Positions 1 to 59,634 of a stretch of DNA of 64,000 nucleotides are shown here, in pieces (the stretch's first letter is position 1; each line of letters begins with the position of its first letter). This DNA comes from an uncultured Clostridia bacterium (GTDB lineage Bacteria; Bacillota; Clostridia; TANB77; CAG-508), in assembly GCA_934130355.1 (NCBI GenBank), contig CAKOXV010000005.1:18690-82689 (forward strand). Direction: 5' to 3'. A model generated the notes under the pieces. It was not told the origin of the DNA and did not search any database. It saw only the letters and a program-made list of their open reading frames with translations. Position numbers and translations under genes: made by a program.

Positions 1-55
1 AGCATTTATAATATTTTCATCAGTAGCAAATAACTTATTATATAACTATATAATC

Positions 56-649
56 ATGAGATATAAAGATGCGAGACCAATTATAATATATAGAATGATT
101 ACAACATTATATATATATATAATTCCAATAACACCAGACACATATATATTTCTTGAATCAATATTAAGAATTATAGTACCATATATAATTTATGTTATCA
201 TAGAAGGATTACATTCAAAAAATAACCAAATAATATCAACAAAACAGAAGATAAAAGAGATTATAATAAGTGTAATTTTATGCATAATAGTAGCATTAAT
301 CGTAATGCTTGTTTCATGTAGATTTAGATTTGGAGCATTAACAATAGGCTCTGGAAGTATGACAGGAACAATAAATAAAGGTGATATAATCATATATGAA
401 AAATATAAAGAAAATGAAAATGTAAAAACAGGAGATATAATAGTATTTACAAGTGATGATACTAGAATAGTTCATAGAGTAACAGAACAAAGAAATTTAG
501 GAGACGAAATAAGATATTATACAAAAGGTGATGCAAACGAACAAGAAGACCAAGGCTATAGATTACGAACTGATGTAGTTGGAAAGGTTAAATTTAGAAT
601 ACCTTATATTGGGTATTTAACATTATTAATAAATGATATGTTTGAATAG
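56..649 (+). CDS. sipW: Signal peptidase I, SipW-like (archaeal/ER-type S26B). Start uncertain; an internal Met is likely.
   Basis: TM helix followed by the catalytic 'GSGSMTGTINKGDII' motif, then 'GDIIVF...HRV' and 'TKGDAN' motifs typical of SipW. Confidence 0.75.
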   Translation: MRYKDARPIIIYRMITTLYIYIIPITPDTYIFLESILRIIVPYIIYVIIEGLHSKNNQIISTKQKIKEIIISVILCIIVALIVMLVSCRFRFGALTIGSGSMTGTINKGDIIIYEKYKENENVKTGDIIVFTSDDTRIVHRVTEQRNLGDEIRYYTKGDANEQEDQGYRLRTDVVGKVKFRIPYIGYLTLLINDMFE

Positions 650-661
650 GGGGAATAAAAA

Positions 662-1774
662 ATGCCAAAAGTATCACAAGAAGTCATATTACAACATCAA
701 AAAAGAAGAAGAAGAACTAAAATAATATTAGGAACATTAGGAGTAGTTTTTCTTGTAATTGCAATAGCTTTAATTAGTATATACTTTATTGCAAGTAAAA
801 ATGAATATAACAAATATAATGAAAAAGCTAAAGTAGATTACAAAGTAAATTTAAAAGAAAATGAATTCTATGATGATAAAACAGTAGATGGAAAAATGAG
901 TGTAGTGGCAAGCCTAATTAAAAACATAGAAGTAGGCTTCAAGTATAACTTAAATTTAGAAAATAGCCAAGATTATATTTATAGTTATAAAATAATTGCA
1001 AAAACAGATGTAAAAGAAGGATCAAGAGCAAATTCAGTATATGAAACATCACAAGAATTACTAAGCAAAGAATTAAAAACAAGTAGTTCTCCAAATCTTG
1101 AAATTTCAGAAAAAGTAGTAATAGATTATAATGAATATAATGAAAAAATTAATAGATTTATAAATATGTATAATCTAGATAACACATCAAATGCATTAGA
1201 GCTAAGTATGTATGTTTATGTAACAAATGTATATGACAATGAAAGAATAAACAAAGAAAGCAAAGTTATGACATTAAACATACCTTTAACAACTAAAACA
1301 GTTGATATAAGCATAAATTCAAATGTAATTGAAGATGAAGGAAAAATACTTTCAAAGAGAAGTGAATATCAAAATATAGAATGGATGTTGCTTGCAGGAT
1401 TAGTAGTGCTTGTAATTGGATTAATCTTTTTTGCAAGATTAATAGTATATACACTAGTAAATAGAAGAGCAGAAACAATATATAGACAAGAATTAAAGAA
1501 AATATTATTTAATTATAAAAGTTATATTCAACAAACAAATAGTGAAATAGATAGTAAAAACTATAAGATAATACAAATAAACACTTTTGAAGAAATACTA
1601 GGAATGAGAGAAACAATGCAATCACCAATTTTAATGTATACAGATGAATCAGAAGAAAGGACCAAATTTATGATTATAAATGATGGAATTCTATATGTAT
1701 ATGTATTAGGTGCAAAAGAAATTAGAGAAGATTTAAGAGCCAAAAGTGCAATGAAACAAGAAAATAAAAAATAA
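662..1774 (+). CDS. Hypothetical bitopic membrane protein (N-terminal TM plus a TM near residue 240) in an operon with sipW.
   Basis: Long ORF 13 bp after sipW. Two hydrophobic helices. No recognisable family. Confidence 0.5.
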   Translation: MPKVSQEVILQHQKRRRRTKIILGTLGVVFLVIAIALISIYFIASKNEYNKYNEKAKVDYKVNLKENEFYDDKTVDGKMSVVASLIKNIEVGFKYNLNLENSQDYIYSYKIIAKTDVKEGSRANSVYETSQELLSKELKTSSSPNLEISEKVVIDYNEYNEKINRFINMYNLDNTSNALELSMYVYVTNVYDNERINKESKVMTLNIPLTTKTVDISINSNVIEDEGKILSKRSEYQNIEWMLLAGLVVLVIGLIFFARLIVYTLVNRRAETIYRQELKKILFNYKSYIQQTNSEIDSKNYKIIQINTFEEILGMRETMQSPILMYTDESEERTKFMIINDGILYVYVLGAKEIREDLRAKSAMKQENKK

Positions 1775-1790
1775 TATAGGGACGAATAGT

Positions 1791-4700
1791 ATGAGAAAAG
1801 TGAAGCTAAGCAGACAGACTTTACTGCTATTCCTTTTACTATTGCTAATAGTATTAATGGGAATAGGATATTCTGCGATAAACTCAGTAACAGGAGAAAT
1901 AGATGGAAAAGTAATTGCAGATATACAAAGTGGAGTATTTATAGCAAGTGTAGAATACAGTAATGATGTTAATGCAGATTTGGACGCTTCTACAATAAAA
2001 TATTATAAAGGAACATATCTGCAAAATACAGTAAAATTATCAGATACAGATGCTAATTCATCAATAACATATAAAGTAACAATATATAATAATTCTGATG
2101 ACTTTACCACATTCTCCGGAGTTGAATATGATGAAGAGTTTTATGATAATTCAGACATAATATTTGAAACAAGTGGCTTAGAAAAAGGGAAAACAATAAA
2201 TAAAAAAGAATCAAAAGATATATATATAACATTTAAATATAAAGATGGAGTTATTCCAGAAAATAAAATCTTAAACGCAAATTTAAGATTTAAGTTTGAT
2301 TGGATAACTAGAATGATGGTAGCCAATCGAAATGACTCTAGTGCCACATATCTAAGAGGAACAATCACAAAAGATAAAATCGAAACAATAAATTTTGCTA
2401 GAGGAAGCACAATATCTGATGAAACAATATCAAGTTTTGATGCATCTGAAAAAGAGAATCAAACTATAATAGGATATTATACAGATATGGATGGTAATGG
2501 ATTATATGAATTAACATTTATGAGTGAAGGAATAATTGCGGCAAATGTAGATGCTTCATATTTATTTGGAGACATGACAAATTTAAAACAAATACTGTTT
2601 GACAATTTTTCTACAAAAGGTGTAACAAACATGTTTAAGATGTTTGGGGCATGTAGTGAATTAACAAGTTTGGATTTGACTAGTTTTAATACAAATCAAG
2701 TAATATCAATGTCAAATATGTTTGATAGTTGCTATAAGTTGATATCTATATATGTAAAACCATATAATGAGGAAAACAATGTGGGTTGGGTGACTTCTGC
2801 AGTAACAGAATCAAATCAAATGTTTAATGCATCAACTAATTTAATTGGAGGAAATGGAACTGAATTTGATGAAAATAATATAGATGTAAATTACGCGAGA
2901 ATAGATACAGTTGAAACTCCTGGATATTTAACAGACATTTCCGATAAACCAGTTATAATGATGAAAGGTAATAATGCTAGTGTTACTCCAAATTATTTGA
3001 GAGGGACAATTGCTAAAAACAGAATTAGAACAATAAGTTTTACAAGGGGAACCACACCACCAGAGGAAATAATAGAAAGTTTTGACGCTTCAGAAAAAGA
3101 AGATAAAAGTATAATGGGATATTATACAGATGCAGGTAATAGCGGATATAACTTGATATTTATGAGTGAATCAGTAATTGCACCAAATGTAGATGCTTCA
3201 TATCTATTTTGCAATTTGAATGTTATGAATCAAATAACATTTGATAATTTTAATACAAATCAAGTAATAGATATGAGTCATATGTTTGAAAAGTGTGAGA
3301 ATCTGAAAAACTTTGATGTAAGCAAATTCAAGACAAATCAATTAACTAACATGAGTTATATGTTTTATTATTGTAGAGGTATAACAGATTTAGACTTAAG
3401 TAATTTTAATACAAGTCAAGTAACCAATATGAGCTATATGCTTTATGCTTGTGATGGCTTAATAAATTTTGATGTAAGTAAATTTAACACAAGTAATGTT
3501 ACAGATATGAGTCATATGTTTGAGCTTTGCAATAAGTTAAATAACATAGATGTAAGTAATTTTGATACAAGCAAAGTAACAGATATGAATTTCATGTTTG
3601 AAGCATGTAAAGCTTTTACAAGCTTGGATGTGAGTAATTTTGACACAAGTCAAGTAACAGACATGGGGGCTATGTTTGCATGGTGTACTAATTTAACGAA
3701 TTTAGACTTAAACAATTTTGATACAAGCCAAGTAACAAATATGAGAAGTATGTTTGAACATTGTGATGCTTTAACAGATTTAAATATAAGCAAATTTGAT
3801 ACTAGTAAAGTAACAGATATGAGTTATATGTTTGATTTTTGTGATAGTTTAACGAGCCTAGACTTAAGTAACTTTGATACAAGTCAAGTAAATGACATGA
3901 AAGTTATGTTTCGTTGTAATAGTCTAACAAACTTGAATATAAGCAGTTTTGATACAAGTAATGTAACAGATATGAATTCAATGTTTAATGATTGCAGTAG
4001 TTTAACAAGTATAGATGTAAGTAATTTTAATACAAGTAATGTAATAGACATGACTAGTATGTTTTGGGGCTGCAGTAGTTTAACAAGCATAGATGTAAGT
4101 AATTTTAATACAAGTAATGTAACCCGAATGATTCAAATGTTTCAAGAGTGTACTAGTTTAACAAGTATAGACTTGAGCAACTTTGATACAAGTAAAGTAA
4201 TAGATATGAGATCATTGTTTAATGGTTGCAGTAAAATAACAAGTATAAATATAAGCAGCTTTGATACAAGTCAAGTAACAAATATGTGGGGTATGTTTTC
4301 ATATTGTAATAACTTAACAAGTATAGATATAAGTAGTTTTAATACAAGTCGAGTTACAGAAATGGGATGGATGTTTTCTAAATCTGCTAAATTATCCCAA
4401 ATTTATGTTAGTGAATTTTCAACTTTAAAAGTTACTAGTTCAGATCATATGTTTTATGATTGTACAAGTTTAGTAGGTGGAAATGGAACGAAATATAATT
4501 CTAGATATCAAGACAAAACTTATGCAAGAATAGACAAATTAGGGGAACCAGGATATTTTACTGAATTAACAAAGGTTAGCAGAATGATGGCAGGTAACAA
4601 TAGTGCTACAAATTATTTAAGAGGAACAATTGCAAAAAACGAAATAAAAACAATAAAATTTATTAGAGGAACTACTCAACCAGAAGGAACAGTATCAAGC

Positions 4701-6809
4701 TTTGACGCATCTGCAAATCATGATGGAAGTATAATGGGGTATTATACAGATGCTGGTGATGGTTTATATGAATTAACATTTATAAGTGATTCAATAATTA
4801 AAGCCAATACAAATGCTTCATATTTATTTCATAATTTAACAGAATTGGAAAAAATCTCATTTGCTAACTTTAGAACTTCAGATGTAACTATTATGACTTC
4901 AATGTTTCAAGGCTGTAGCAAGTTGAAAAATTTGAGTTTAGGTAATTTTGATACAAGTAATGTTACAAGAATGACACTTATGTTTTATAAGTGTAATAAT
5001 CTAGTAAGTTTAGATGTAAGCAGCTTTAATACAAGCAAAGTAGTAGATATGTATGCTATGTTTAATCAATGCAGTAACCTAACAAGCGTAGATGTAAGTA
5101 AATTTGATACAAGTCAAGTAACAAGTATGGGATTTATGTTTGGAGGTTGCCTTAAATTAGAAAGTTTAAATCTAAGTAGTTTTGATACAAGTAAAGTAAC
5201 AAGTATGACCGTTATGTTTAATCAATGCAGTAGTTTAACAAGCTTAGATTTAAAAGGATTTGATACAAGCAAAGTTACTACTATGAGTTATATGTTTGCA
5301 TATTGCACTAAATTATCCACAATTTATGTTGATGACTTTTCTACATCAGCAGTAACTGATGATGCAAATATGTTTAATGCATGTACAAGCCTAGTAGGAG
5401 GAAATGGAACGAGATACAATGCTAGTTATAAGACTAAAACTTATGCAAGGATAGATAAAGCAGGAGAACCAGGATATTTTACCCAAAAGTATAATGAAAC
5501 AGTAATGATGAAAACATCTGGAAGTGATAATAATTCAAATTACTTAAGAGGAGGAATTAAAAAAGTAAATATAGAAAAAATCAAATTTGTAAAAGGAAAG
5601 ACTCAGCCAACTGGAATAATATCAAGTTTTGATGCTTCTGAAAATCAAGATGGAAGTATAATAGGATATTATACAGATATAAATGGAAATGGCTTATATG
5701 AATTAACATTTATGAGTAATTCGACAATAAAAGCAAATGCAGATTCATCATATTTATTTATGTATTTGACAAATTTAAAAGAAATAACATTTGATAACTT
5801 TAAAACAACAGGCACAACTAATATGCTGTATATGTTTTTCTATTGTAGTAATTTAGCAAGTATAGATTTGAGTAATTTTGATACGAGTGAAGTTACAAAT
5901 ATGCAATATTTATTTGGATATTGTAGTAGTTTAGAAAGTTTAGACATAAGTAGTTTTGATACAAGTAAAGTTACAAATATGGGAACAATGTTCCTAGAAT
6001 GTTCAAAATTATCTAAAATTTATGTTGATCAATTTGCAACATCAGCAGTAACCAATTCAGGTGGAATGTTCTATGGATGTACAAATCTAGTAGGAGGAAA
6101 TGGAACAACTTATGATGCTAGTAAAAATGATGCAACTTATGCAAGAATAGACAAGTCTGGAACACCAGGATACTTTACTTTAAAAAACAAGAGTGAAGTA
6201 ATGATGATGGCAACAGAATTAAGCGGAAGTAGTTCTAACTATTTAAGAGGAACAATTATAAGAGGACAAATAGAAAAAGTAAAATTCGTTGAAGGAACAA
6301 CACCACCAACAGGAACAACATCAAGTTTTGATGCTTCAGCAAATCAAGATGGAAGTATAATGGGATATTATACAGATACAGATGGAAATGGTTTGTATGA
6401 ATTGACATTTATGAGTGATGCGATAATTATTTCAAATACAAATGCATCAGGATTATTTATGAATTTTACAAATTTAAAAGAAATAACATTTGATAATTTT
6501 AAAACAACAGGCACAACTAATATGCTGTATATGTTTCTTTATTGTAGTAATTTAACAAGTTTGGACTTAAGTAATTTCGATACAAGTAAAGTTACAAATA
6601 TGCAAACAATGTTTGCAGGATGCTCAAAGCTATCTACGATTTATGTTAAAAACTTTTCAACACTTGAAGTTACTTCTTCTGGAGATATGTTTGGAGGATG
6701 TACAAGCCTAGTAGGAGGAAATGGAACAACATTCAACTCTAGTTATACAGATGCAACATATGCAAGAATAGACAAGTCTGGAACACCAGGATATTTTACA
6801 CAAAAATAA
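1791..6809 (+). CDS. Giant surface protein of 1672 aa. N-terminal signal/anchor and conserved beta-rich domain of about 190 aa, followed by four modules of 26-residue DUF285/TIGR02167 leucine-rich repeats.
   Basis: Repeating '(L)xxLDxSxFDTSxVTxMxxMFxxCxxL' units. Each module ends 'GGNGTxYN..TYARIDKxGxPGYFT'. Signal-like N-terminus 'MRKVKLSRQTLLLFLLLLLIVLMGIGYSAINS'. Confidence 0.85.
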   Translation: MRKVKLSRQTLLLFLLLLLIVLMGIGYSAINSVTGEIDGKVIADIQSGVFIASVEYSNDVNADLDASTIKYYKGTYLQNTVKLSDTDANSSITYKVTIYNNSDDFTTFSGVEYDEEFYDNSDIIFETSGLEKGKTINKKESKDIYITFKYKDGVIPENKILNANLRFKFDWITRMMVANRNDSSATYLRGTITKDKIETINFARGSTISDETISSFDASEKENQTIIGYYTDMDGNGLYELTFMSEGIIAANVDASYLFGDMTNLKQILFDNFSTKGVTNMFKMFGACSELTSLDLTSFNTNQVISMSNMFDSCYKLISIYVKPYNEENNVGWVTSAVTESNQMFNASTNLIGGNGTEFDENNIDVNYARIDTVETPGYLTDISDKPVIMMKGNNASVTPNYLRGTIAKNRIRTISFTRGTTPPEEIIESFDASEKEDKSIMGYYTDAGNSGYNLIFMSESVIAPNVDASYLFCNLNVMNQITFDNFNTNQVIDMSHMFEKCENLKNFDVSKFKTNQLTNMSYMFYYCRGITDLDLSNFNTSQVTNMSYMLYACDGLINFDVSKFNTSNVTDMSHMFELCNKLNNIDVSNFDTSKVTDMNFMFEACKAFTSLDVSNFDTSQVTDMGAMFAWCTNLTNLDLNNFDTSQVTNMRSMFEHCDALTDLNISKFDTSKVTDMSYMFDFCDSLTSLDLSNFDTSQVNDMKVMFRCNSLTNLNISSFDTSNVTDMNSMFNDCSSLTSIDVSNFNTSNVIDMTSMFWGCSSLTSIDVSNFNTSNVTRMIQMFQECTSLTSIDLSNFDTSKVIDMRSLFNGCSKITSINISSFDTSQVTNMWGMFSYCNNLTSIDISSFNTSRVTEMGWMFSKSAKLSQIYVSEFSTLKVTSSDHMFYDCTSLVGGNGTKYNSRYQDKTYARIDKLGEPGYFTELTKVSRMMAGNNSATNYLRGTIAKNEIKTIKFIRGTTQPEGTVSSFDASANHDGSIMGYYTDAGDGLYELTFISDSIIKANTNASYLFHNLTELEKISFANFRTSDVTIMTSMFQGCSKLKNLSLGNFDTSNVTRMTLMFYKCNNLVSLDVSSFNTSKVVDMYAMFNQCSNLTSVDVSKFDTSQVTSMGFMFGGCLKLESLNLSSFDTSKVTSMTVMFNQCSSLTSLDLKGFDTSKVTTMSYMFAYCTKLSTIYVDDFSTSAVTDDANMFNACTSLVGGNGTRYNASYKTKTYARIDKAGEPGYFTQKYNETVMMKTSGSDNNSNYLRGGIKKVNIEKIKFVKGKTQPTGIISSFDASENQDGSIIGYYTDINGNGLYELTFMSNSTIKANADSSYLFMYLTNLKEITFDNFKTTGTTNMLYMFFYCSNLASIDLSNFDTSEVTNMQYLFGYCSSLESLDISSFDTSKVTNMGTMFLECSKLSKIYVDQFATSAVTNSGGMFYGCTNLVGGNGTTYDASKNDATYARIDKSGTPGYFTLKNKSEVMMMATELSGSSSNYLRGTIIRGQIEKVKFVEGTTPPTGTTSSFDASANQDGSIMGYYTDTDGNGLYELTFMSDAIIISNTNASGLFMNFTNLKEITFDNFKTTGTTNMLYMFLYCSNLTSLDLSNFDTSKVTNMQTMFAGCSKLSTIYVKNFSTLEVTSSGDMFGGCTSLVGGNGTTFNSSYTDATYARIDKSGTPGYFTQK

Positions 6810-6817
6810 AACAGAGA

Positions 6818-6860
6818 ATAGAAGTAGAAAACCAAAAAATTCTACTTCTATTTTTTTATC
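6818..6860 (+). terminator. Rho-independent terminator after the first giant repeat gene.
   Basis: Stem GAAGTAGAA...TTCTACTTC followed by a T-run. Confidence 0.7.
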
Positions 6861-6914
6861 CATAATAATACAAAATACTTTTAAATTAACACAAATAAAA
6901 ATTTAATAAACTAC

Positions 6915-6950
6915 TTGAAAAATATGCAAAGAAAATATACAATGTATAAT
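6915..6950 (+). promoter_or_regulatory. Sigma-A-like promoter (TTGAAA-17-TACAAT/TATAAT) upstream of the second giant gene. Homologous to the pth promoter segment at 10575-10610.
   Basis: -35/-10 hexamers. Segment 'tacttgaaaaata(t/c)gcaaa' is duplicated at 10571. Confidence 0.45.
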
Positions 6951-7049
6951 AATAAAATACAAAAATTAGCAATAATTTTTTACAAAATCTTATCCTAAAA
7001 TAGCGAAACATATTGAAGATTAAATATAAAAAATAAACGAGGAAAGGAG

Positions 7050-7091
7050 ATGGTGATATATCTAAAATTAGATATATCATACAAAAGATAG
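7050..7091 (+). other. 13-codon upstream ORF (MVIYLKLDISYKR) with a strong SD. Its stop codon lies 1 nt before the start of the gene at 7093. It contains the 24-bp palindrome GATATATCTAA-AA-TTAGATATATC (7055-7078).
   Basis: GAGGAAAGGAG then ATG at 7050. TAG at 7089-7091, then 'tagtATG'. Perfect 11-bp inverted-repeat arms. Confidence 0.35.
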
Positions 7092-7092
7092 T

Positions 7093-10000
7093 ATGAGAAA
7101 AGTGAAGCTGAGACAAAAAACTTTAATACTATTCCTTTTGCTATTGGTAATAGTATTAATGGGAATAGGATATTCTGCAATAAATTCAATAACAGGCGAA
7201 ATTAAAGGAATTGTAATCGCAAACATACAAGATGGTGTATTTATAGCAAATGTAGAATATGTGAGTAGTGTTAATGCAGATGTAGACAATTCAGCAATTG
7301 AGTATTATAAAGGCACATATTTGCGAAACAAAGCAAAACTATCAGATACAGATGCAAGTTCTTCAATAACATATAAAATAACATTTTATGATAATTCTAA
7401 TAGTTCTTATACATTTGTAGGAGTAGAATATGATGAAGAATTCTATGACAATGTAGACATAATATTTGAAACAAGTAGATTTGACATAGGGCAAGACATA
7501 AACAAGAATGAAACAAAAGAAATGTATATAACATTTAAATACAAAGATGGAGTTCTTCCAGAAAACAAAACTCTAAATGCGAATTTGAACTTCAAATTTG
7601 AAAAAATAAATAGAATGATGGTAGCAGGCAACAATTCTAGTGGAAACTATTTAAGAGGAACAATTGCAAAAGACCAAATAGAAACAATAAGTTTTACAAA
7701 AGGAACTACACCGCCAACAGGAGTAACATCAAGTTTTGATGCTTCTGAAAGTCAAGACAATGGCATAATTGGATATTACACAGATACAGATGGTAATGGA
7801 CTATATGAATTAACATTTATGAGTGAAGGAACAATTTTAGCTAATACAAATAGTTCATATTTGTTTTTCAAGTTGACAAGTTTAAATCAGATAACATTTG
7901 ACAATTTTGATGTAAGTGCTACAAGTAAAGTAACAGACATGAAATATATGTTTTATAGTTGCGGAGGTTTAACTAGTTTGGATGTAAGTAAATTTGATAC
8001 AAGCCAAGTAACAAGTATGAGTTATATGTTTTCTTCTTGCGGTGGTTTAACGAGTTTAGATTTAAGCAATTTTAATACAAGCAAAGTTACAGATGTGGAG
8101 TATATGTTTTATAATTGTAGTAATTTAACAAAGTTAGATGTAAGCAAATTTGACACAAGTCAAGTAACATATATGAGACATATGTTTAATGGTTGCAGTG
8201 GTTTAACCAGTTTAGATGTAAACAACTTTGATACAAGTAAAGTAACAAACATGAGTTATATGTTTTCTTCTTGCAGTGGTTTAACTGATTTAGATGTAAG
8301 CAACTTTAATACAAGTCAAGTAACAGCTATGAATAGTATGTTTGAATCTTGTAGTGGTTTAACCAATTTAGATTTAAGTAACTTTGATACAGGTAAAGTA
8401 ACAGAAATGTATAGTATGTTTGAATCTTGTAGTGGTTTAACCAGTTTAGATGTAAGCAACTTTAATACAAGCAAAGTAACAAATATGAGTGCTATGTTTT
8501 CTTCTTGCAATAGTTTAGCCAGCCTAGATGTAAGCAACTTTGGTACAAGTCAGGTAAGATTTATGAGTACTATGTTTTATGGTTGCAGTAGTTTAACCAA
8601 TTTAGATGTAAGCAACTTTGATACAAGTCAGGTAATGTATATGAGTCATATGTTTACTCAATGCAGTGGCTTAACCAATTTAGATGTAAGCAACTTTAAC
8701 ACAAGTCAAGTAAGAGAGATACAGGATATGTTTAGAGATTGTTTTGGTCTAACCAGTTTAGATTTAAGTAACTTTAACACAGCAGAAGTAACAAATATGA
8801 GTGGTATGTTTGCGAATTGTGTCGGTCTAATCAATTTAGACGTAAGCAGTTTTAACACAAGTAAAGTAACAAGTATGGGTGGTATGTTTGAGGATTGCAT
8901 AAATTTAACAAGTTTAGATTTAAACAGTTTTGACACAGGTCAAGTGAAATATATGAGTGACATGTTTGGGTATTGTAGAAAATTAACAACCATTTATGCT
9001 AAAGATTTTTCAACTTCAAATGTCAGAAATTCCTCAAGTATGTTTAACAAATGTACAAGCCTAGTAGGTGGAAATGGAACGACGTACAATTCTAGTTATA
9101 CAGATGCAACATATGCAAGAATAGACATAGAAGGAACACCAGGATATTTTACGAGACTAACAAGAATGATGGTTGCAAGCTACAGTTTTGATGGAAACCA
9201 TTTAAGAGGAACAATTGCAAAAGATAAAATAGAAAAAATAGTTTTTACCAAAGGCTCTACAGCTCCAACAGGAGCAATATCAAGTTTTGATGCTTCTGAA
9301 AATGAAGATAAAAGTATAATAGGATACTATACAGATACAGACGGAAATGATTTATATGAATTAACATTTATGAGTGAAAGCACAATTTTGGCTAATACAA
9401 ATAGTTCGTATTTGTTTTACGGTTTAAAGAGTTTAAAACAGATAACATTTGACAATTTTAATGTAAGTAATGTAAGCAAGGTAACAGATATGATAAATAT
9501 GTTTACTGGTTGTATTAGTTTAACCAGTTTAGATGTAAGTAAATTTGATACTAGCCAAGTAACAAGTATGAGTTCTATGTTTTATGGGTGTAGTGGATTA
9601 ACGAGTTTGGATGTAAGCAAGTTTGATACAAGTCAAGTAACAAGTATGAGTTCTATGTTTTATGGGTGTAGTGGATTAACGAGTTTGGATGTGAGCAAGT
9701 TTGATACAAGTCAAGTAACAAGTATGAGTTCTATGTTTTATAATTGCAGTGGTTTGACGAGTCTAGATGTAAGCAGCTTTGATACAAGTCAAGTAACATT
9801 AATGGATAGTATGTTTTCTAATTGCAGTAGCTTAACAAGTTTAGATGTAAGCAAATTTGACACAAGTAAAGTAACAGATATGAGTTATATGTTTTTTTAT
9901 TGCAGTAAATTAACAAATTTAGATGTAAGCAAATTTGACACAAGCAAAGTGACGGATATGATGCGTATGTTTTATAATTGCAGTGGTTTGACGAGTTTAG

Positions 10001-10479
10001 ATGTAAGCAAATTTGATACAAGCCAAGTGACAGATATGAGTCATATGTTTTATAATTGCAAAGGTTTAACCGGTTTAGATGTGAGCAATTTTGACACAAG
10101 CAAAGTAACAGGTATGAGGGATATGTTTTCTGGTTGCAAAGGTTTAACCAGTTTAGATGTAAGTAACTTTGATACTAGCCAAGTAACAAATATGATGCAG
10201 ATGTTTACTAATTGCAGTGGCTTAACGAGTTTAGATGTAAGCAAATTTGATACAAGTAAAGTAACAAATATGATGAATATGTTTTTTGGTTGCAGTAAAT
10301 TAACAACAATTTATGTTAAAGATTTTTCAACTTCAAATGTTACAGAGTCTTCGAACATGTTCTATGGTTGCACAAGCCTAGTAGGAGGAAATGGAACTAC
10401 GTACAATTCTAGTTATAAAGATGCAACATATGCAAGAATAGACACAGCTGGAACACCAGGATATTTTACACAAAAATAA
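7093..10479 (+). CDS. Second giant surface protein (1128 aa), paralogue of 1791..6809. The N-terminal domain of about 190 aa is conserved; two modules of 26-residue DUF285 repeats follow.
   Basis: About 85% nt identity to the paralogue over the N-terminus. Same repeat consensus and same C-terminal 'GGNGTTYNSSY.DATYARID..GTPGYFTQK'. Confidence 0.85.
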   Translation: MRKVKLRQKTLILFLLLLVIVLMGIGYSAINSITGEIKGIVIANIQDGVFIANVEYVSSVNADVDNSAIEYYKGTYLRNKAKLSDTDASSSITYKITFYDNSNSSYTFVGVEYDEEFYDNVDIIFETSRFDIGQDINKNETKEMYITFKYKDGVLPENKTLNANLNFKFEKINRMMVAGNNSSGNYLRGTIAKDQIETISFTKGTTPPTGVTSSFDASESQDNGIIGYYTDTDGNGLYELTFMSEGTILANTNSSYLFFKLTSLNQITFDNFDVSATSKVTDMKYMFYSCGGLTSLDVSKFDTSQVTSMSYMFSSCGGLTSLDLSNFNTSKVTDVEYMFYNCSNLTKLDVSKFDTSQVTYMRHMFNGCSGLTSLDVNNFDTSKVTNMSYMFSSCSGLTDLDVSNFNTSQVTAMNSMFESCSGLTNLDLSNFDTGKVTEMYSMFESCSGLTSLDVSNFNTSKVTNMSAMFSSCNSLASLDVSNFGTSQVRFMSTMFYGCSSLTNLDVSNFDTSQVMYMSHMFTQCSGLTNLDVSNFNTSQVREIQDMFRDCFGLTSLDLSNFNTAEVTNMSGMFANCVGLINLDVSSFNTSKVTSMGGMFEDCINLTSLDLNSFDTGQVKYMSDMFGYCRKLTTIYAKDFSTSNVRNSSSMFNKCTSLVGGNGTTYNSSYTDATYARIDIEGTPGYFTRLTRMMVASYSFDGNHLRGTIAKDKIEKIVFTKGSTAPTGAISSFDASENEDKSIIGYYTDTDGNDLYELTFMSESTILANTNSSYLFYGLKSLKQITFDNFNVSNVSKVTDMINMFTGCISLTSLDVSKFDTSQVTSMSSMFYGCSGLTSLDVSKFDTSQVTSMSSMFYGCSGLTSLDVSKFDTSQVTSMSSMFYNCSGLTSLDVSSFDTSQVTLMDSMFSNCSSLTSLDVSKFDTSKVTDMSYMFFYCSKLTNLDVSKFDTSKVTDMMRMFYNCSGLTSLDVSKFDTSQVTDMSHMFYNCKGLTGLDVSNFDTSKVTGMRDMFSGCKGLTSLDVSNFDTSQVTNMMQMFTNCSGLTSLDVSKFDTSKVTNMMNMFFGCSKLTTIYVKDFSTSNVTESSNMFYGCTSLVGGNGTTYNSSYKDATYARIDTAGTPGYFTQK
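9532..9765 (+). repeat. Three near-identical tandem 78-bp (26-codon) repeats inside the second giant gene.
   Basis: 'DVSKFDTSQVTSMSSMFYGCSGLTSL' is encoded three times with 1-3 nt differences. Confidence 0.85.
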
Positions 10480-10502
10480 TTAATATAAATAAAAATTTAA
10501 GT

Positions 10503-10542
10503 AGAAGCAGAAAGTAAAGACTTTTTGCTTCTGCTTTTTTAT
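10503..10542 (+). terminator. Rho-independent terminator after the second giant gene.
   Basis: Stem AGAAGCAGAAAG...CTTTTTGCTTCTGCT followed by TTTTTT. Confidence 0.7.
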
Positions 10543-10574
10543 GTTCCAAAACTCAAATAATTTGACAAAATACT

Positions 10575-13920: not shown

Positions 13921-15105
13921 ATGGAAGAAAATGAAAAAGACAGATATGTTTTTGAGATTTTAGCTTTATTTGAACAAGAAATTGATGCAAAATTACAAGA
14001 AGAAAAAGGAGAAGCTGAAAGGATAAAATATTATGAAAAATTCAATATAAATGGAATTGACTTTGAAAATATATTTATAACAACAGAAAGAGATGAAAAA
14101 GGAAAAGTCAGCTACCATGTATATTGTGGAGGTTCTTCAAATGAAATATTGTCAATAGATGACAAAGGAAATGTAACAATAAAAAATGAAGAATTAGGAA
14201 AGTATTTAGGCGAAGATGTCGATTTAGAGAAAACAATGTCTGAAAATGAAAAAGACCCAAAAGGCTTAAGAGGAATTTCTGAAAAAATGAAGCAAGAAGA
14301 AGAAAAAGAGCAAAAGGAACAAGACAAGCCAGATGAGCCAGACAAAGAAACAGAAAAAATCGAAGAAGAATTAGAAGAACAAGGTGAAGAAGACTTAAAA
14401 ATAAGCAAATACAGAAAAATAAAAGACACTGGAGTAGCCGAAAGAATGCCAGAAGTATTTGGTGGTTCAACAGAAAATGGTATAGCATTTTCAAACAAAC
14501 TAAACAGATATATAATCATTTCAAAAGTCAATGGAAAAACTCAAATAAATGACAATGTTGAGCCTGCAAGAATGACATGGAAAAGTATTATAAGTATAGA
14601 CCCAAATGGCCAAAGTGTTGAAAGAAAAGTGCCACATGCATTAATGAAAACAAATAGAAGTGATAAAGAAATAGCAGTTACAATTGGACAATATGGAGAA
14701 GTTGATATAGAAACAGTGGATGTGCTTCCTTGTCAAGAAAGAATCTCAAGAGAAGTAAGAGTTGATGGAGAAGGGACAGAAAAACAAGAAAGCCGTGAGA
14801 TAAGAAATCAATTTGCACAAGAAGGAAAAGAATACAAACATGATATAGCACATCGAGTTCAAGATATAGAACAAGCACAAAGAGATGCAAATCAAACAGT
14901 AGATTATGATATAACAGAAGATGACTACATCCCAAACACAGAAATGACCTGGGGAGAATTAATGGAAGAAACAGGAGAATCTTTACCTAAACTAATAGAA
15001 AGATATAATAGAGAAATGGGAAAACAAGATGCAAAATCAGAAGATGTTGTAGAAACAATAGAAAATGATTATGGCAATATATCTCATGAACATGGATTAA
15101 ATTAG
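13921..15105 (+). CDS. Hypothetical highly acidic Glu/Lys-rich protein.
   Basis: Long ORF with a good RBS (AAGGGGGAAG). Low-complexity acidic stretch. No family recognised. Confidence 0.5.
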   Translation: MEENEKDRYVFEILALFEQEIDAKLQEEKGEAERIKYYEKFNINGIDFENIFITTERDEKGKVSYHVYCGGSSNEILSIDDKGNVTIKNEELGKYLGEDVDLEKTMSENEKDPKGLRGISEKMKQEEEKEQKEQDKPDEPDKETEKIEEELEEQGEEDLKISKYRKIKDTGVAERMPEVFGGSTENGIAFSNKLNRYIIISKVNGKTQINDNVEPARMTWKSIISIDPNGQSVERKVPHALMKTNRSDKEIAVTIGQYGEVDIETVDVLPCQERISREVRVDGEGTEKQESREIRNQFAQEGKEYKHDIAHRVQDIEQAQRDANQTVDYDITEDDYIPNTEMTWGELMEETGESLPKLIERYNREMGKQDAKSEDVVETIENDYGNISHEHGLN

Positions 15106-58221: not shown

Positions 58222-58250
58222 AAGTATGCTTTTGCATACTTTTTATTTTT
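58222..58250. terminator. Bidirectional terminator between the GH15 gene (+) and murC (-).
   Basis: Stem AAAGTATGC-tttt-GCATACTTT with T-runs on both sides. Confidence 0.65.
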
Positions 58251-59634
58251 GGGTTAACATTGGACCAATATCAGTAACTGTACCAGCTCCAAGAGTTAAA
58301 ACAATATCATCTTTTTGAACATGGTCTTTTATATAAGAAGCACAACCTTCAAGAGAAGGAATATAAATTGCATCTTTTCCTAATTTTGTAATTGCATCAG
58401 CCAAATCTTTAGAAGAAATATTATAAGTGTTAGTTTCTCTTGCTGCATAAATATCAGTAACAATAATATTATCAAAAGAAAGTAAAGCTTTAGCAAAATC
58501 ATCTAAAAGATTAAATGTTCTACTATATGTATGTGGTTGAAAAATAACCCATGATTTATTATAAGTTTTATTTTTTAAAGCTTTAGCAGTAGCAATTACT
58601 TCTGTTGGATGATGACCATAATCATCATATACTTTAGCACCATTAACAATTCCTTTATATTGGAATCTACGTTCAGCTCCAGTAAATTTTTCTAAAGCAG
58701 TTTTCATGCAATCAACAGAAATTCCATAACTATCACATAATGAAATACAAGCTAATGCATTTAAAACATTGTGTCTACCAGGAATTGAAAGTTTAAAATG
58801 TCCGAAAAGTTCATTATTTTTATAACAATCAAACTCTGGAAAACCATTTTCGTCAAAAGCAATATTTTTTGCACAATAATCGACATCTTTATTTTCTATA
58901 CCATATTTAATAACAGGTGCTTTAGAATGTTCAGGTAAAATTAAACAATTTGCATCATCTGCATTTATAATAAGATGACCATCTTTTGGCAAAAGCTCAA
59001 CATATTTTATAAAAGCTTTTTTGATATTTTCAATATTTTTGTAATAGTCTAAATGATCATTATCAATATTTAAAATAATTTCACTTCTTGGACTGAATTT
59101 TAAAAAGCTTTCAACATATTCACAAGCTTCAATTATAAAGTTTTCACTATTTCCAACTCTATAATTTCCACCAAGTTCTTTAATAATTGCTCCAACTTGA
59201 ATACTAGGATCTCTAAGAGCTTCTATAAAACATAAAGATACAAGTGAAGTTGTTGTAGTTTTTCCATGTGTTCCAGAAATTGCAATAGTATTTTTATAAC
59301 ATCTTGTAAGTTCACCTAAAAAGTCTGAACGTTCAATAACTGGAATTCCAAGTTCTTTTGCACGAACAAGTTCAGGATTATCTTGTTTTATAGCAGCTGT
59401 ATAAACTACACAGTCAGCACCTTCAACATTTTTTGCATTATGTCCGACAAAAGTTTTAATATTTGCTTTATTTAATATATGTAAAATTTCTGAATCAACA
59501 TTATTACTTCCTGAAACTTCAAAACCCCAATTAACAAGGATTTCAGCAATTCCACTCATACTTATACCGCCGATTCCAATCATAAAGATTTTTTTGTATT
59601 TCTTAATATTTTTAATATTAGGCATTATAAACAC
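58243..59634 (-). CDS. murC: UDP-N-acetylmuramate--L-alanine ligase.
   Basis: 'IGIGGISMSG' at the N-terminus. 'GTHGKTTTTS' P-loop. Full-length Mur ligase. Confidence 0.9.
   Translation of the reverse strand: MFIMPNIKNIKKYKKIFMIGIGGISMSGIAEILVNWGFEVSGSNNVDSEILHILNKANIKTFVGHNAKNVEGADCVVYTAAIKQDNPELVRAKELGIPVIERSDFLGELTRCYKNTIAISGTHGKTTTTSLVSLCFIEALRDPSIQVGAIIKELGGNYRVGNSENFIIEACEYVESFLKFSPRSEIILNIDNDHLDYYKNIENIKKAFIKYVELLPKDGHLIINADDANCLILPEHSKAPVIKYGIENKDVDYCAKNIAFDENGFPEFDCYKNNELFGHFKLSIPGRHNVLNALACISLCDSYGISVDCMKTALEKFTGAERRFQYKGIVNGAKVYDDYGHHPTEVIATAKALKNKTYNKSWVIFQPHTYSRTFNLLDDFAKALLSFDNIIVTDIYAARETNTYNISSKDLADAITKLGKDAIYIPSLEGCASYIKDHVQKDDIVLTLGAGTVTDIGPMLTQK

Follow-up and report, generated by a model that had tools for sequence, protein, structure and literature searches.

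Haloarchaeal Tat-fimbriae (Tafi) are formed with the aid of a pilus-specific signal peptidase, TafD, whose deletion blocks TafA processing and the formation of fimbriae; TafG, a protein of the family DUF5305, has been proposed as the helper of this peptidase (PMC11821415; PMC12337348). The AbpX loci of the TasA superfamily, which occur in archaea, Bacillota, and Chloroflexota, comprise a major subunit together with minor ones, proteins predicted to form tips, a signal peptidase I (SPase I) of distinct structure with ten transmembrane (TM) helices, and a DUF5305 accessory protein (bioRxiv 10.64898/2026.01.04.697558). Here, we compare with these systems a gene cluster at the left edge of a 64,000-nucleotide stretch of DNA from an uncultured Clostridia bacterium (assembly GCA_934130355.1, contig CAKOXV010000005.1, positions 18,690 to 82,689 of the forward strand; hereafter the window). 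The cluster encodes an SPase I, a DUF5305 membrane protein, and two giant repeat proteins, which very probably form a dedicated peptidase–cargo module together with a small secreted protein encoded just outside the window.

Four open reading frames (ORFs) of the plus strand, 56–649, 662–1774, 1791–6809 (1672 amino acids, aa), and 7093–10479 (1128 aa), were identified. Their coordinates and strand, and the lengths of both giant proteins, agree with a preliminary description of this DNA made from the sequence alone. The cluster is truncated by the window edge, and only its right-hand part lies in the window. An exact-match look-up of the DUF5305 protein extended it past this edge into long human-gut metagenome contigs, e.g., a 166-kb Hadza contig. 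Coordinates given below refer to the window unless prefixed with the number of a locus on such a contig (L001 and so on); base 1 of the window corresponds to L001 9340. The extension revealed a gene with a strong ribosome-binding site that codes for a 172-aa protein and is located directly upstream of the peptidase gene (L001 8310–8828). The preliminary description missed this protein, which lay beyond the sequence available to it, as well as the polytopic nature of the peptidase.

A one-genome-per-species scan yielded 44 loci in about 25 gut metagenome-assembled genomes (MAGs), mostly of uncultured Clostridia, with one complete 1.55-Mb chromosome. 'Candidatus Scybalousia', which NCBI places ambiguously under Bacteroidales, was left aside for taxonomic purposes. 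The loci were annotated with custom profiles, and the neighbouring ORFs were clustered for 24 non-redundant loci. Only three families recurred among the latter: the family of the N-terminal domain shared by the small protein and the giants (N-domain; 24 loci), the peptidase (24), and DUF5305 (23). The recurrent gene order is small protein, polytopic peptidase, DUF5305 protein, and N-domain fusion, the fusion being located upstream in some loci. In all 24 loci, the operon opens with a stand-alone copy of the N-domain, and the DUF5305 gene immediately follows the peptidase gene in 23 of them. The flanks are unrelated housekeeping genes. Two loci that were fully examined, L038 and L047, consist of the three-gene core only; the MAG containing L038 encodes 500-aa N-domain fusions elsewhere.

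The preliminary description had suggested a dedicated SipW-dependent system and had proposed co-occurrence in relatives as a check. In the sense of a SipW/ER-type peptidase with its cognate cargo, this suggestion is supported by the co-conservation of three families in 24 loci with differing flanks. The same pattern bears on the reading that a housekeeping peptidase lies by chance beside ordinary Sec-secreted PARCEL proteins, the shared N-terminus reflecting a recent duplication of the giants. Although PARCEL proteins are common and horizontally spread among Mollicutes and Firmicutes (PMC2996958) and no hit to the curated SipW-cognate signal was obtained, chance adjacency is highly improbable, being largely refuted by the retention of the three-family module between unrelated flanks. 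Further points against it come from the peptidase and from the N-domain, as described below.

The ORF at 56–649 (197 aa), previously labelled sipW, does encode SPase I but represents only the C-terminal half of the enzyme. The ATG at position 56 is internal, since the frame is open from window base 2 and the full contigs give a gene of 374 aa (L001 8864–9988), which starts 476 nt upstream of the window. The TIGR02228 scores were 98.2 bits for the window fragment and 95.9 bits for the full-length protein (cutoff 51.85). In the strict sense, the label sipW does not apply: the score with the Bacillus SipW equivalog NF046067 was 78 bits against a cutoff of 190, and the protein has neither the small size nor the few TM segments of SipW, so that it is not an orthologue of the latter. 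The catalytic Ser and His (not Lys) are present in GSGSM (S278) and VHRV (H317), and the GDxN box in KGDAN (335–338). Across 24 homologues with identities as low as 30%, residues S278, H317, R318, and G335-D336-A337-N338 do not vary; judged by sequence, the catalytic site is intact.

The N-terminal extension of ~235 aa is polytopic, with about eight hydrophobic segments, or ~9 if the segment preceding the catalytic domain is included. It spans L001 8864–9570 and reaches into the window (2–230). This part of the peptidase matched no Pfam or NCBIfam model. Because residues Y78, G81, P104, E113, R116, N170, and P201 are nevertheless invariant across the 24 homologues, the extension appears to have a conserved function of its own. 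Such an unusual domain with invariant polar residues, among them E113, R116, and N170, speaks against a housekeeping enzyme that came to lie here by chance. So does the presence of a separate conventional S26 signal peptidase of 207 aa, ~5 kb upstream of the module, in one relative (L031 3155–3775), which fits the view that the polytopic enzyme is a specialised second signal peptidase. Relatives of the peptidase numbered 1,112 at 90% clustering, all with at least 57% identity among the matches listed; one of them, from Clostridium sp. CAG:356, was present on 770 contigs.

The protein encoded at 662–1774 matched PF17231 with 49.2 bits (gathering cutoff 29) over profile positions 5–217 of 217. 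Its TM segments were located at residues 26–44 and 244–262, in line with the two-TM membrane protein described before, which can now be assigned to DUF5305. The probable topology includes a short cytoplasmic N-terminus, the first TM segment, an extracellular domain of ~200 aa, the second TM segment, and a cytoplasmic C-terminal domain of ~110 aa. The earlier proposal that this protein is an accessory factor gains support from its co-conservation with the peptidase and the N-domain proteins. The DUF5305 protein of a Christensenellaceae MAG (L045 11722–13431) is 570 aa long instead of the usual ~370 aa, and the added part gave no Pfam hit.

The 172-aa protein begins with MNKSTKVLTAVVVFLAVVLVAVGYAAITSVNLKISG, a junction identical in type to that of the giants (...LMGIGYSAINSVTGEIDG). 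The leader junction (V/I)GY(A/S)|(A/S)I, common to the small protein and both giants, is nearly invariant. About 90 proteins share it; positions −3 and −1 are occupied by small residues, −2 by Tyr, and P2' by a bulky residue. The junction of the AbpX leader, ...IGLTYA|QWSETLSLSATISTG, is similar (supplement of bioRxiv 10.64898/2026.01.04.697558). The predicted mature N-termini are AITSVNLK in the small protein (residues 26–172), AINSVTGEIDGK and AINSITGEIK in the giants, and ALTD, QFTD, and TLSD in divergent relatives. The predicted mature small protein contains 24% Thr and 13% Ala, no Cys and no Arg, and 8.8% Asp plus Glu (D+E), and has an isoelectric point (pI) of 4.85. Its Thr-rich surface could be O-glycosylated, as in archaeal pilins of such kind. 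This protein is probably the main cargo of the peptidase.

Leaders of this type bear on two other readings of the giants. In one of them, the giants are Mycoplasma-style PARCEL lipoproteins held by an N-terminal lipid anchor. Partial hits to NF045896, of 193 and 225 bits, point in this direction, but these remain below the cutoff of 500 and involve the repeats only. The giants have no Cys in their first 176 residues, hence no lipobox, and are not lipoproteins; the sequence refutes this reading, the probability of which is negligible. The other reading treats the cargo as type IV pilins or archaellin-like proteins, in which the hydrophobic N-terminal helix is retained as the filament core after cleavage by a prepilin peptidase. 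This is very improbable as well. Inspection of the sequences revealed no class III site (G/A|hydrophobic) and no Glu at +5, and the hydrophobic core carries the invariant motif at its C-terminal end, where the residues at −3 and −1 are small, as expected of SPase I substrates. In addition, no gene for a prepilin peptidase, ATPase, or platform protein occurs in any of the 24 loci, the linked enzyme being an S26 peptidase.

The N-terminal 181 aa of the two giants are 73% identical to each other. In a BLASTP comparison, the small protein and a giant N-terminus showed weak similarity (E 6e-4). Comparison by hhalign of an alignment of 41 small proteins (A1) with one of 24 giant N-termini (A2) gave a probability of 97.3% and an E-value of 2.7e-11. 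Since this match covers 146 columns, the homology spans the whole domain and not the leader alone. The preliminary description had assigned the giants a conserved beta-rich N-terminal domain of about 190 aa; a separate conserved module is indeed present, but it comprises ~145 aa and follows a 28-aa leader.

AlphaFold2 (AF2) models of the monomers agree with this relationship. For the small protein, a leader helix, an unstructured stretch (residues 23–45), and then eight strands that form a β-sandwich were predicted (predicted local distance difference test, pLDDT, 87.9). The model of the giant 1 N-domain contains a leader helix, a low-confidence segment of ~20 residues, and eight strands (pLDDT 81.5). 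The predicted strands occur at matching positions and in the same order in both proteins. In the free N-terminal segment, the alternating hydrophobic positions (V/I)-x-L-x-I-x-G are conserved; averaged over its length, however, the segment is not the most conserved part of the domain.

The N-domain is not confined to these proteins. The small-protein profile retrieved 3,032 cluster representatives (50% identity) at E ≤ 1e-3. The best 150 of these 3,032 matches are all close relatives and hence give no view of bridging families. Among them, the domain begins within the first eight residues in 146 proteins; one begins at residue 19, and three are fragment-like. Roughly 40% of these 150 proteins carry C-terminal extensions. 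Passengers found on the N-domain in relatives are BspA-type LRR_5, DUF285, CBM49/CBM_2, ricin-B lectin, and FGE-sulfatase-like domains. Homology of the giants' N-domain to the product of the first gene of the operon, and its fusion to many passengers, are also difficult to reconcile with chance adjacency. Tandem arrays of up to four genes for proteins of 450–800 aa were located far from any peptidase gene (L024 7926–16164; L032; L034; L007). Their products combine a small-protein-type N-domain with a BspA-type leucine-rich repeat (LRR), DUF285, or FGE-like C-terminus, and some MAGs possess at least 8–10 such genes.

The identification of the giants as DUF285/TIGR02167 proteins with 26-residue repeats was confirmed. 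With the PARCEL/TIGR02167/DUF285 hidden Markov models (HMMs), they scored 757.6 and 871.7 bits, with 24–25 matched stretches, and the repeat period is 78 bp, i.e., 26 aa. Each module of giant 1 consists of an N-cap (YLRG...FDAS), 26-aa repeats, and a C-cap (GGNGT...PGYF). The giant 2 passenger contains three identical consecutive 26-aa units. Neither a C-terminal anchor nor an LPXTG sorting signal was found in the giants, both of which end in ...GTPGYFTQK. Strain variation was also recorded: the giant 2 allele in L003 (11124–14432) has 1102 aa instead of 1128 aa, the missing stretch being exactly one 26-aa unit from a series of identical ones.

Several further arrangements involve the giants. 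One allele (L002 14593–18076) is split into parts of 866 and 344 aa, by a frameshift or by assembly. On a short contig (L005 2121–2957), a giant-2-type N-domain directly follows the DUF5305 gene, which points to recombination of the two giants or to a collapsed assembly. A subunit fragment is located just upstream of a giant in L025 (4522–4800), and the protein P0014 joins the C-terminal part of a small subunit to the leader and N-domain of a giant. The joined protein is likely a frameshift or assembly artefact; the case demonstrates that small-subunit and giant genes can be immediate neighbours.

Affiliation of the cargo with described families was examined by profile searches. The giants' leaders had been assigned to the SipW-cognate class in the preliminary description. 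This could not be substantiated: the 60-aa and ~270-aa N-termini, the 172-aa protein, and divergent relatives gave no TIGR04088 hit even at E ≤ 10, while a TasA control scored 38 bits (cutoff 19). The control sequence was validated as TasA at 513.8 bits on NF046066. The preliminary description had named two findings that together would speak against its proposal, the lack of a SipW-cognate match and the lack of a conserved neighbourhood; the first was observed, yet the neighbourhood is strongly conserved. The TIGR04088 result does not exclude membership in the wider TasA superfamily, because AbpX fails this model too.

Likewise, the suggestion that the N-domain is TasA- or camelysin-like was not upheld by the models: full-length cargo, N-termini, the upstream protein, and divergent relatives gave no hit to TasA, camelysin, or BsaA (Peptidase_M73, NF046066, TIGR04090). 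Comparisons with AbpX and TasA by hhalign were not significant (probabilities of 9.6%, 54.6% over 22 columns, and 0.9% for alignment A3 against TasA), the use of single-sequence targets limiting their sensitivity. Profile searches of A1 and A3 against PDB sequences produced no pilin or TasA-family hit. Neither TasA nor AbpX was among the 60 matches listed, and the giants' domain gave generic matches only. The traits of the AbpX family, namely an aromatic residue at mature position 2, an acidic residue at position 4, a pI of ~4, and ~15% Asp/Glu, were not found; the corresponding values here are mature starts of AITS/AINS, a pI of 4.85, and 8.8% D+E. As far as sequence comparison goes, the cargo family is unannotated and has no detectable link to described members. 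The broad trait of the TasA superfamily, a beta-sandwich preceded by a free N-terminal strand, is seen in the AF2 models.

A sortase-dependent pilus or surface protein was also considered and rejected, like the lipoprotein, type IV pilin, and chance-adjacency readings; there is no LPXTG motif, and no sortase family is linked among the 24 loci. We propose instead a chain of dedicated processing, a donor-strand fibre of the small protein, and giant adhesins that plug into it, and on balance consider this chain as a whole to be probable. All cargo would be exported by Sec with the shared leader. The dedicated peptidase, together with DUF5305, would cut at the conserved junction, where Tyr at −2 and the bulky P2' residue would make the cargo, like TasA, a poor substrate for the housekeeping SPase; processing would then depend on the linked enzyme. 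Cleavage is expected to release an amphipathic N-terminal segment of ~20 residues, which is unstructured in the AF2 monomer. This segment may be donated as a strand to an adjacent subunit, whose beta-sandwich it would complete. By such strand donation, polymers of the small protein would form a thin fibre comparable to those of TasA, ABP, threads, Tafi, and AbpX. Because the giants likewise begin with this leader, donor segment, and sandwich, they could plug into the fibre, at its end or along its length, and would display five and two PARCEL LRR-like modules, respectively, as putative adhesins. Candidates for holding the structure on the cell are DUF5305 and the polytopic domain.

The main rival to this chain accepts dedicated processing and dispenses with polymerisation. 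In that case, the N-domain would be a retention or stalk module that keeps the adhesins on the cell by binding either to the wall or to the sandwich that DUF5305 exposes outside the cell. The small protein would then coat the surface or compete for this binding site. We regard this as rather unlikely. It leaves unexplained the stand-alone copy of the domain at the first position of the operon in all 24 loci, as well as the free N-terminal segment with its alternating hydrophobic residues, and every characterised system of SPase I with DUF5305 makes donor-strand filaments.

If the donor-strand fibre is real, abundant uncultured gut Clostridia (relatives of Clostridium sp. CAG:356) would possess sortase-independent TasA/Tafi-like fibres with tips formed by exchangeable adhesins that vary in repeat number. 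This would provide a molecular handle on the attachment of small-genome commensals to mucus, fibre, or other cells and would account for the display of PARCEL and BspA-type repeat proteins by Gram-positive gut bacteria. With 3,032 clusters at 50% identity, a very large unannotated family would also join the cross-domain assembly module of SPase I and DUF5305. A bolder and only tentative extension is that these loci represent a widespread, unrecognised class of pili in human and animal gut Clostridia. Here, a new family of strand-donating pilins would be served by the polytopic domain and DUF5305 as a membrane platform for assembly and anchoring, not as a protease only, and each genome would supply dozens of interchangeable adhesins (PARCEL, BspA-LRR, lectins, CBMs), which would be attached via the shared N-domain.

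Table 1. Features of the cluster in the window and the evidence for each assignment.
Feature	Position	Strand	Evidence
C-terminal 215 codons of the 374-aa polytopic SipW/ER-type signal peptidase I	2..649	+	ORF open from base 2; TIGR02228; GSGSM...VHRV...KGDAN
DUF5305 (TafG-family) bitopic membrane protein, proposed SPase I accessory subunit	662..1774	+	PF17231; TM segments; gene position
Leader of giant 1 (aa 1-28): basic n-region, ~17-residue hydrophobic core, predicted junction IGYS|AINS	1791..1874	+	Junction conservation
Pilin-like N-domain of giant 1 (aa 29-173): free N-terminal segment, then 8-strand beta-sandwich	1875..2309	+	hhalign; AF2
Passenger of giant 1: five capped PARCEL/DUF285 LRR-like modules	2310..6809	+	HMM hits; motif positions
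Terminator-like hairpin after giant 1	6820..6857	+	10-bp stem AGAAGTAGAA, 10-nt loop, TTCTACTTCT, then ATTTTTTT; read from sequence
Leader of giant 2 (aa 1-28), predicted junction IGYS|AINS	7093..7176	+	Sequence; junction conservation
Pilin-like N-domain of giant 2 (aa 29-173)	7177..7611	+	giantN HMM E 4.5e-80; pilin HMM E 7.9e-08
Passenger of giant 2: two capped PARCEL modules	7612..10479	+	HMM hits; motif positions
Intrinsic-terminator-like hairpin, 17 pairs + T-run, closing the cluster	10499..10546	+	Terminator scan

The gaps between the four ORFs measure 12, 16, and 283 nt. Giant 2 probably forms its own transcription unit, since the 283-nt gap contains a terminator-like hairpin (6820–6849) with a T-run and a promoter-like site (6915–6943). 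With its AT-rich stem and 10-nt loop, this hairpin was overlooked by the terminator scanner. A strong Shine–Dalgarno (SD) sequence, GGAAAGGAG, precedes a 13-codon upstream ORF (uORF), MVIYLKLDISYKR (7050–7091; region 7041–7092), which stops one base before the ATG of giant 2 and holds two copies of the palindrome GATATATC, 8 nt apart. Giant 2 has no good SD sequence of its own, and the uORF may serve translational coupling or regulation. The cluster is followed by pth, and RNase G is also located downstream. A gene for spore photoproduct lyase (L001 7140–8138) was found immediately upstream of the module, together with thyA and folA; to judge from this gene, the host may form spores. Elsewhere in the window, a 394-aa ORF very rich in Glu, Lys, and Asp is located between a MiaB-like gene and a gene for a TPR-like protein (13921–15105). 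All large ORFs of the window are on the plus strand except that at 58243–59634, the position of which coincides with the single dip in GC skew (58–60 kb).

The preliminary description knew of no described system with this combination; this view is outdated, since loci with SPase I, DUF5305, a small pilin, and tip proteins are known (PMC11821415; PMC12337348; bioRxiv 10.64898/2026.01.04.697558). In the literature searched, we found no description of the version with PARCEL giants, of this cargo family, or of the many alternative adhesin fusions. FimH/PapG and the tip adhesins of sortase pili similarly combine a pilin-type, fibre-joining domain with a varying binding domain; in FimH/PapG, however, the pilin domain is C-terminal and without a donor strand of its own, and the machinery is unrelated, with no usher, chaperone, or sortase being present here. 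Described PARCEL/DUF285/TIGR02167 proteins share the 26-residue amphipathic repeats, the copy-number variation, and the surface location. They are mostly lipoproteins or carry ordinary signals (PMC2996958), whereas the repeats of the present giants are carried as passengers by a pilin-like N-domain that is linked to a dedicated peptidase.

In tapA-sipW-tasA of Bacillus subtilis and sipW-bsaA of Clostridium perfringens, a dedicated ER-type S26B peptidase is also encoded with fibre-forming cargo that has an aromatic residue at −2, Ala at −1, and a bulky P2' residue, and a second leader-sharing protein, TapA, joins the fibre. These loci differ from the present one in that SipW is small with few TM segments, DUF5305 and adhesin fusions are absent, and the cargo matches TIGR04088, TasA, or BsaA models. 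The Tafi system, with the pilins TafA and TafE, TafD, and TafG (DUF5305), is archaeal and employs Tat leaders. TafD has four TM helices and an extra C-terminal domain and lacks an N-terminal polytopic extension, and Tafi includes a regulator, TafB, that is absent here.

The AbpX loci share with the present module a small (~160-aa mature) secreted beta-sandwich subunit, Tyr-Ala at −2/−1 of the leader junction, and a TIGR02228-type SPase I with many TM helices (ten reported; about 9–10 hydrophobic segments here). Further common features are the two-TM DUF5305 accessory protein, additional proteins that carry the subunit domain (minor subunits or tips in AbpX), and occurrence in Bacillota. The module shares the machinery and logic of TasA-superfamily pilus loci such as Tafi and AbpX, i.e., of a kind of system that is known but recent. 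We suggest that it works like the TasA-superfamily fibres because of its machinery, its domain logic, and its free N-terminal segment.

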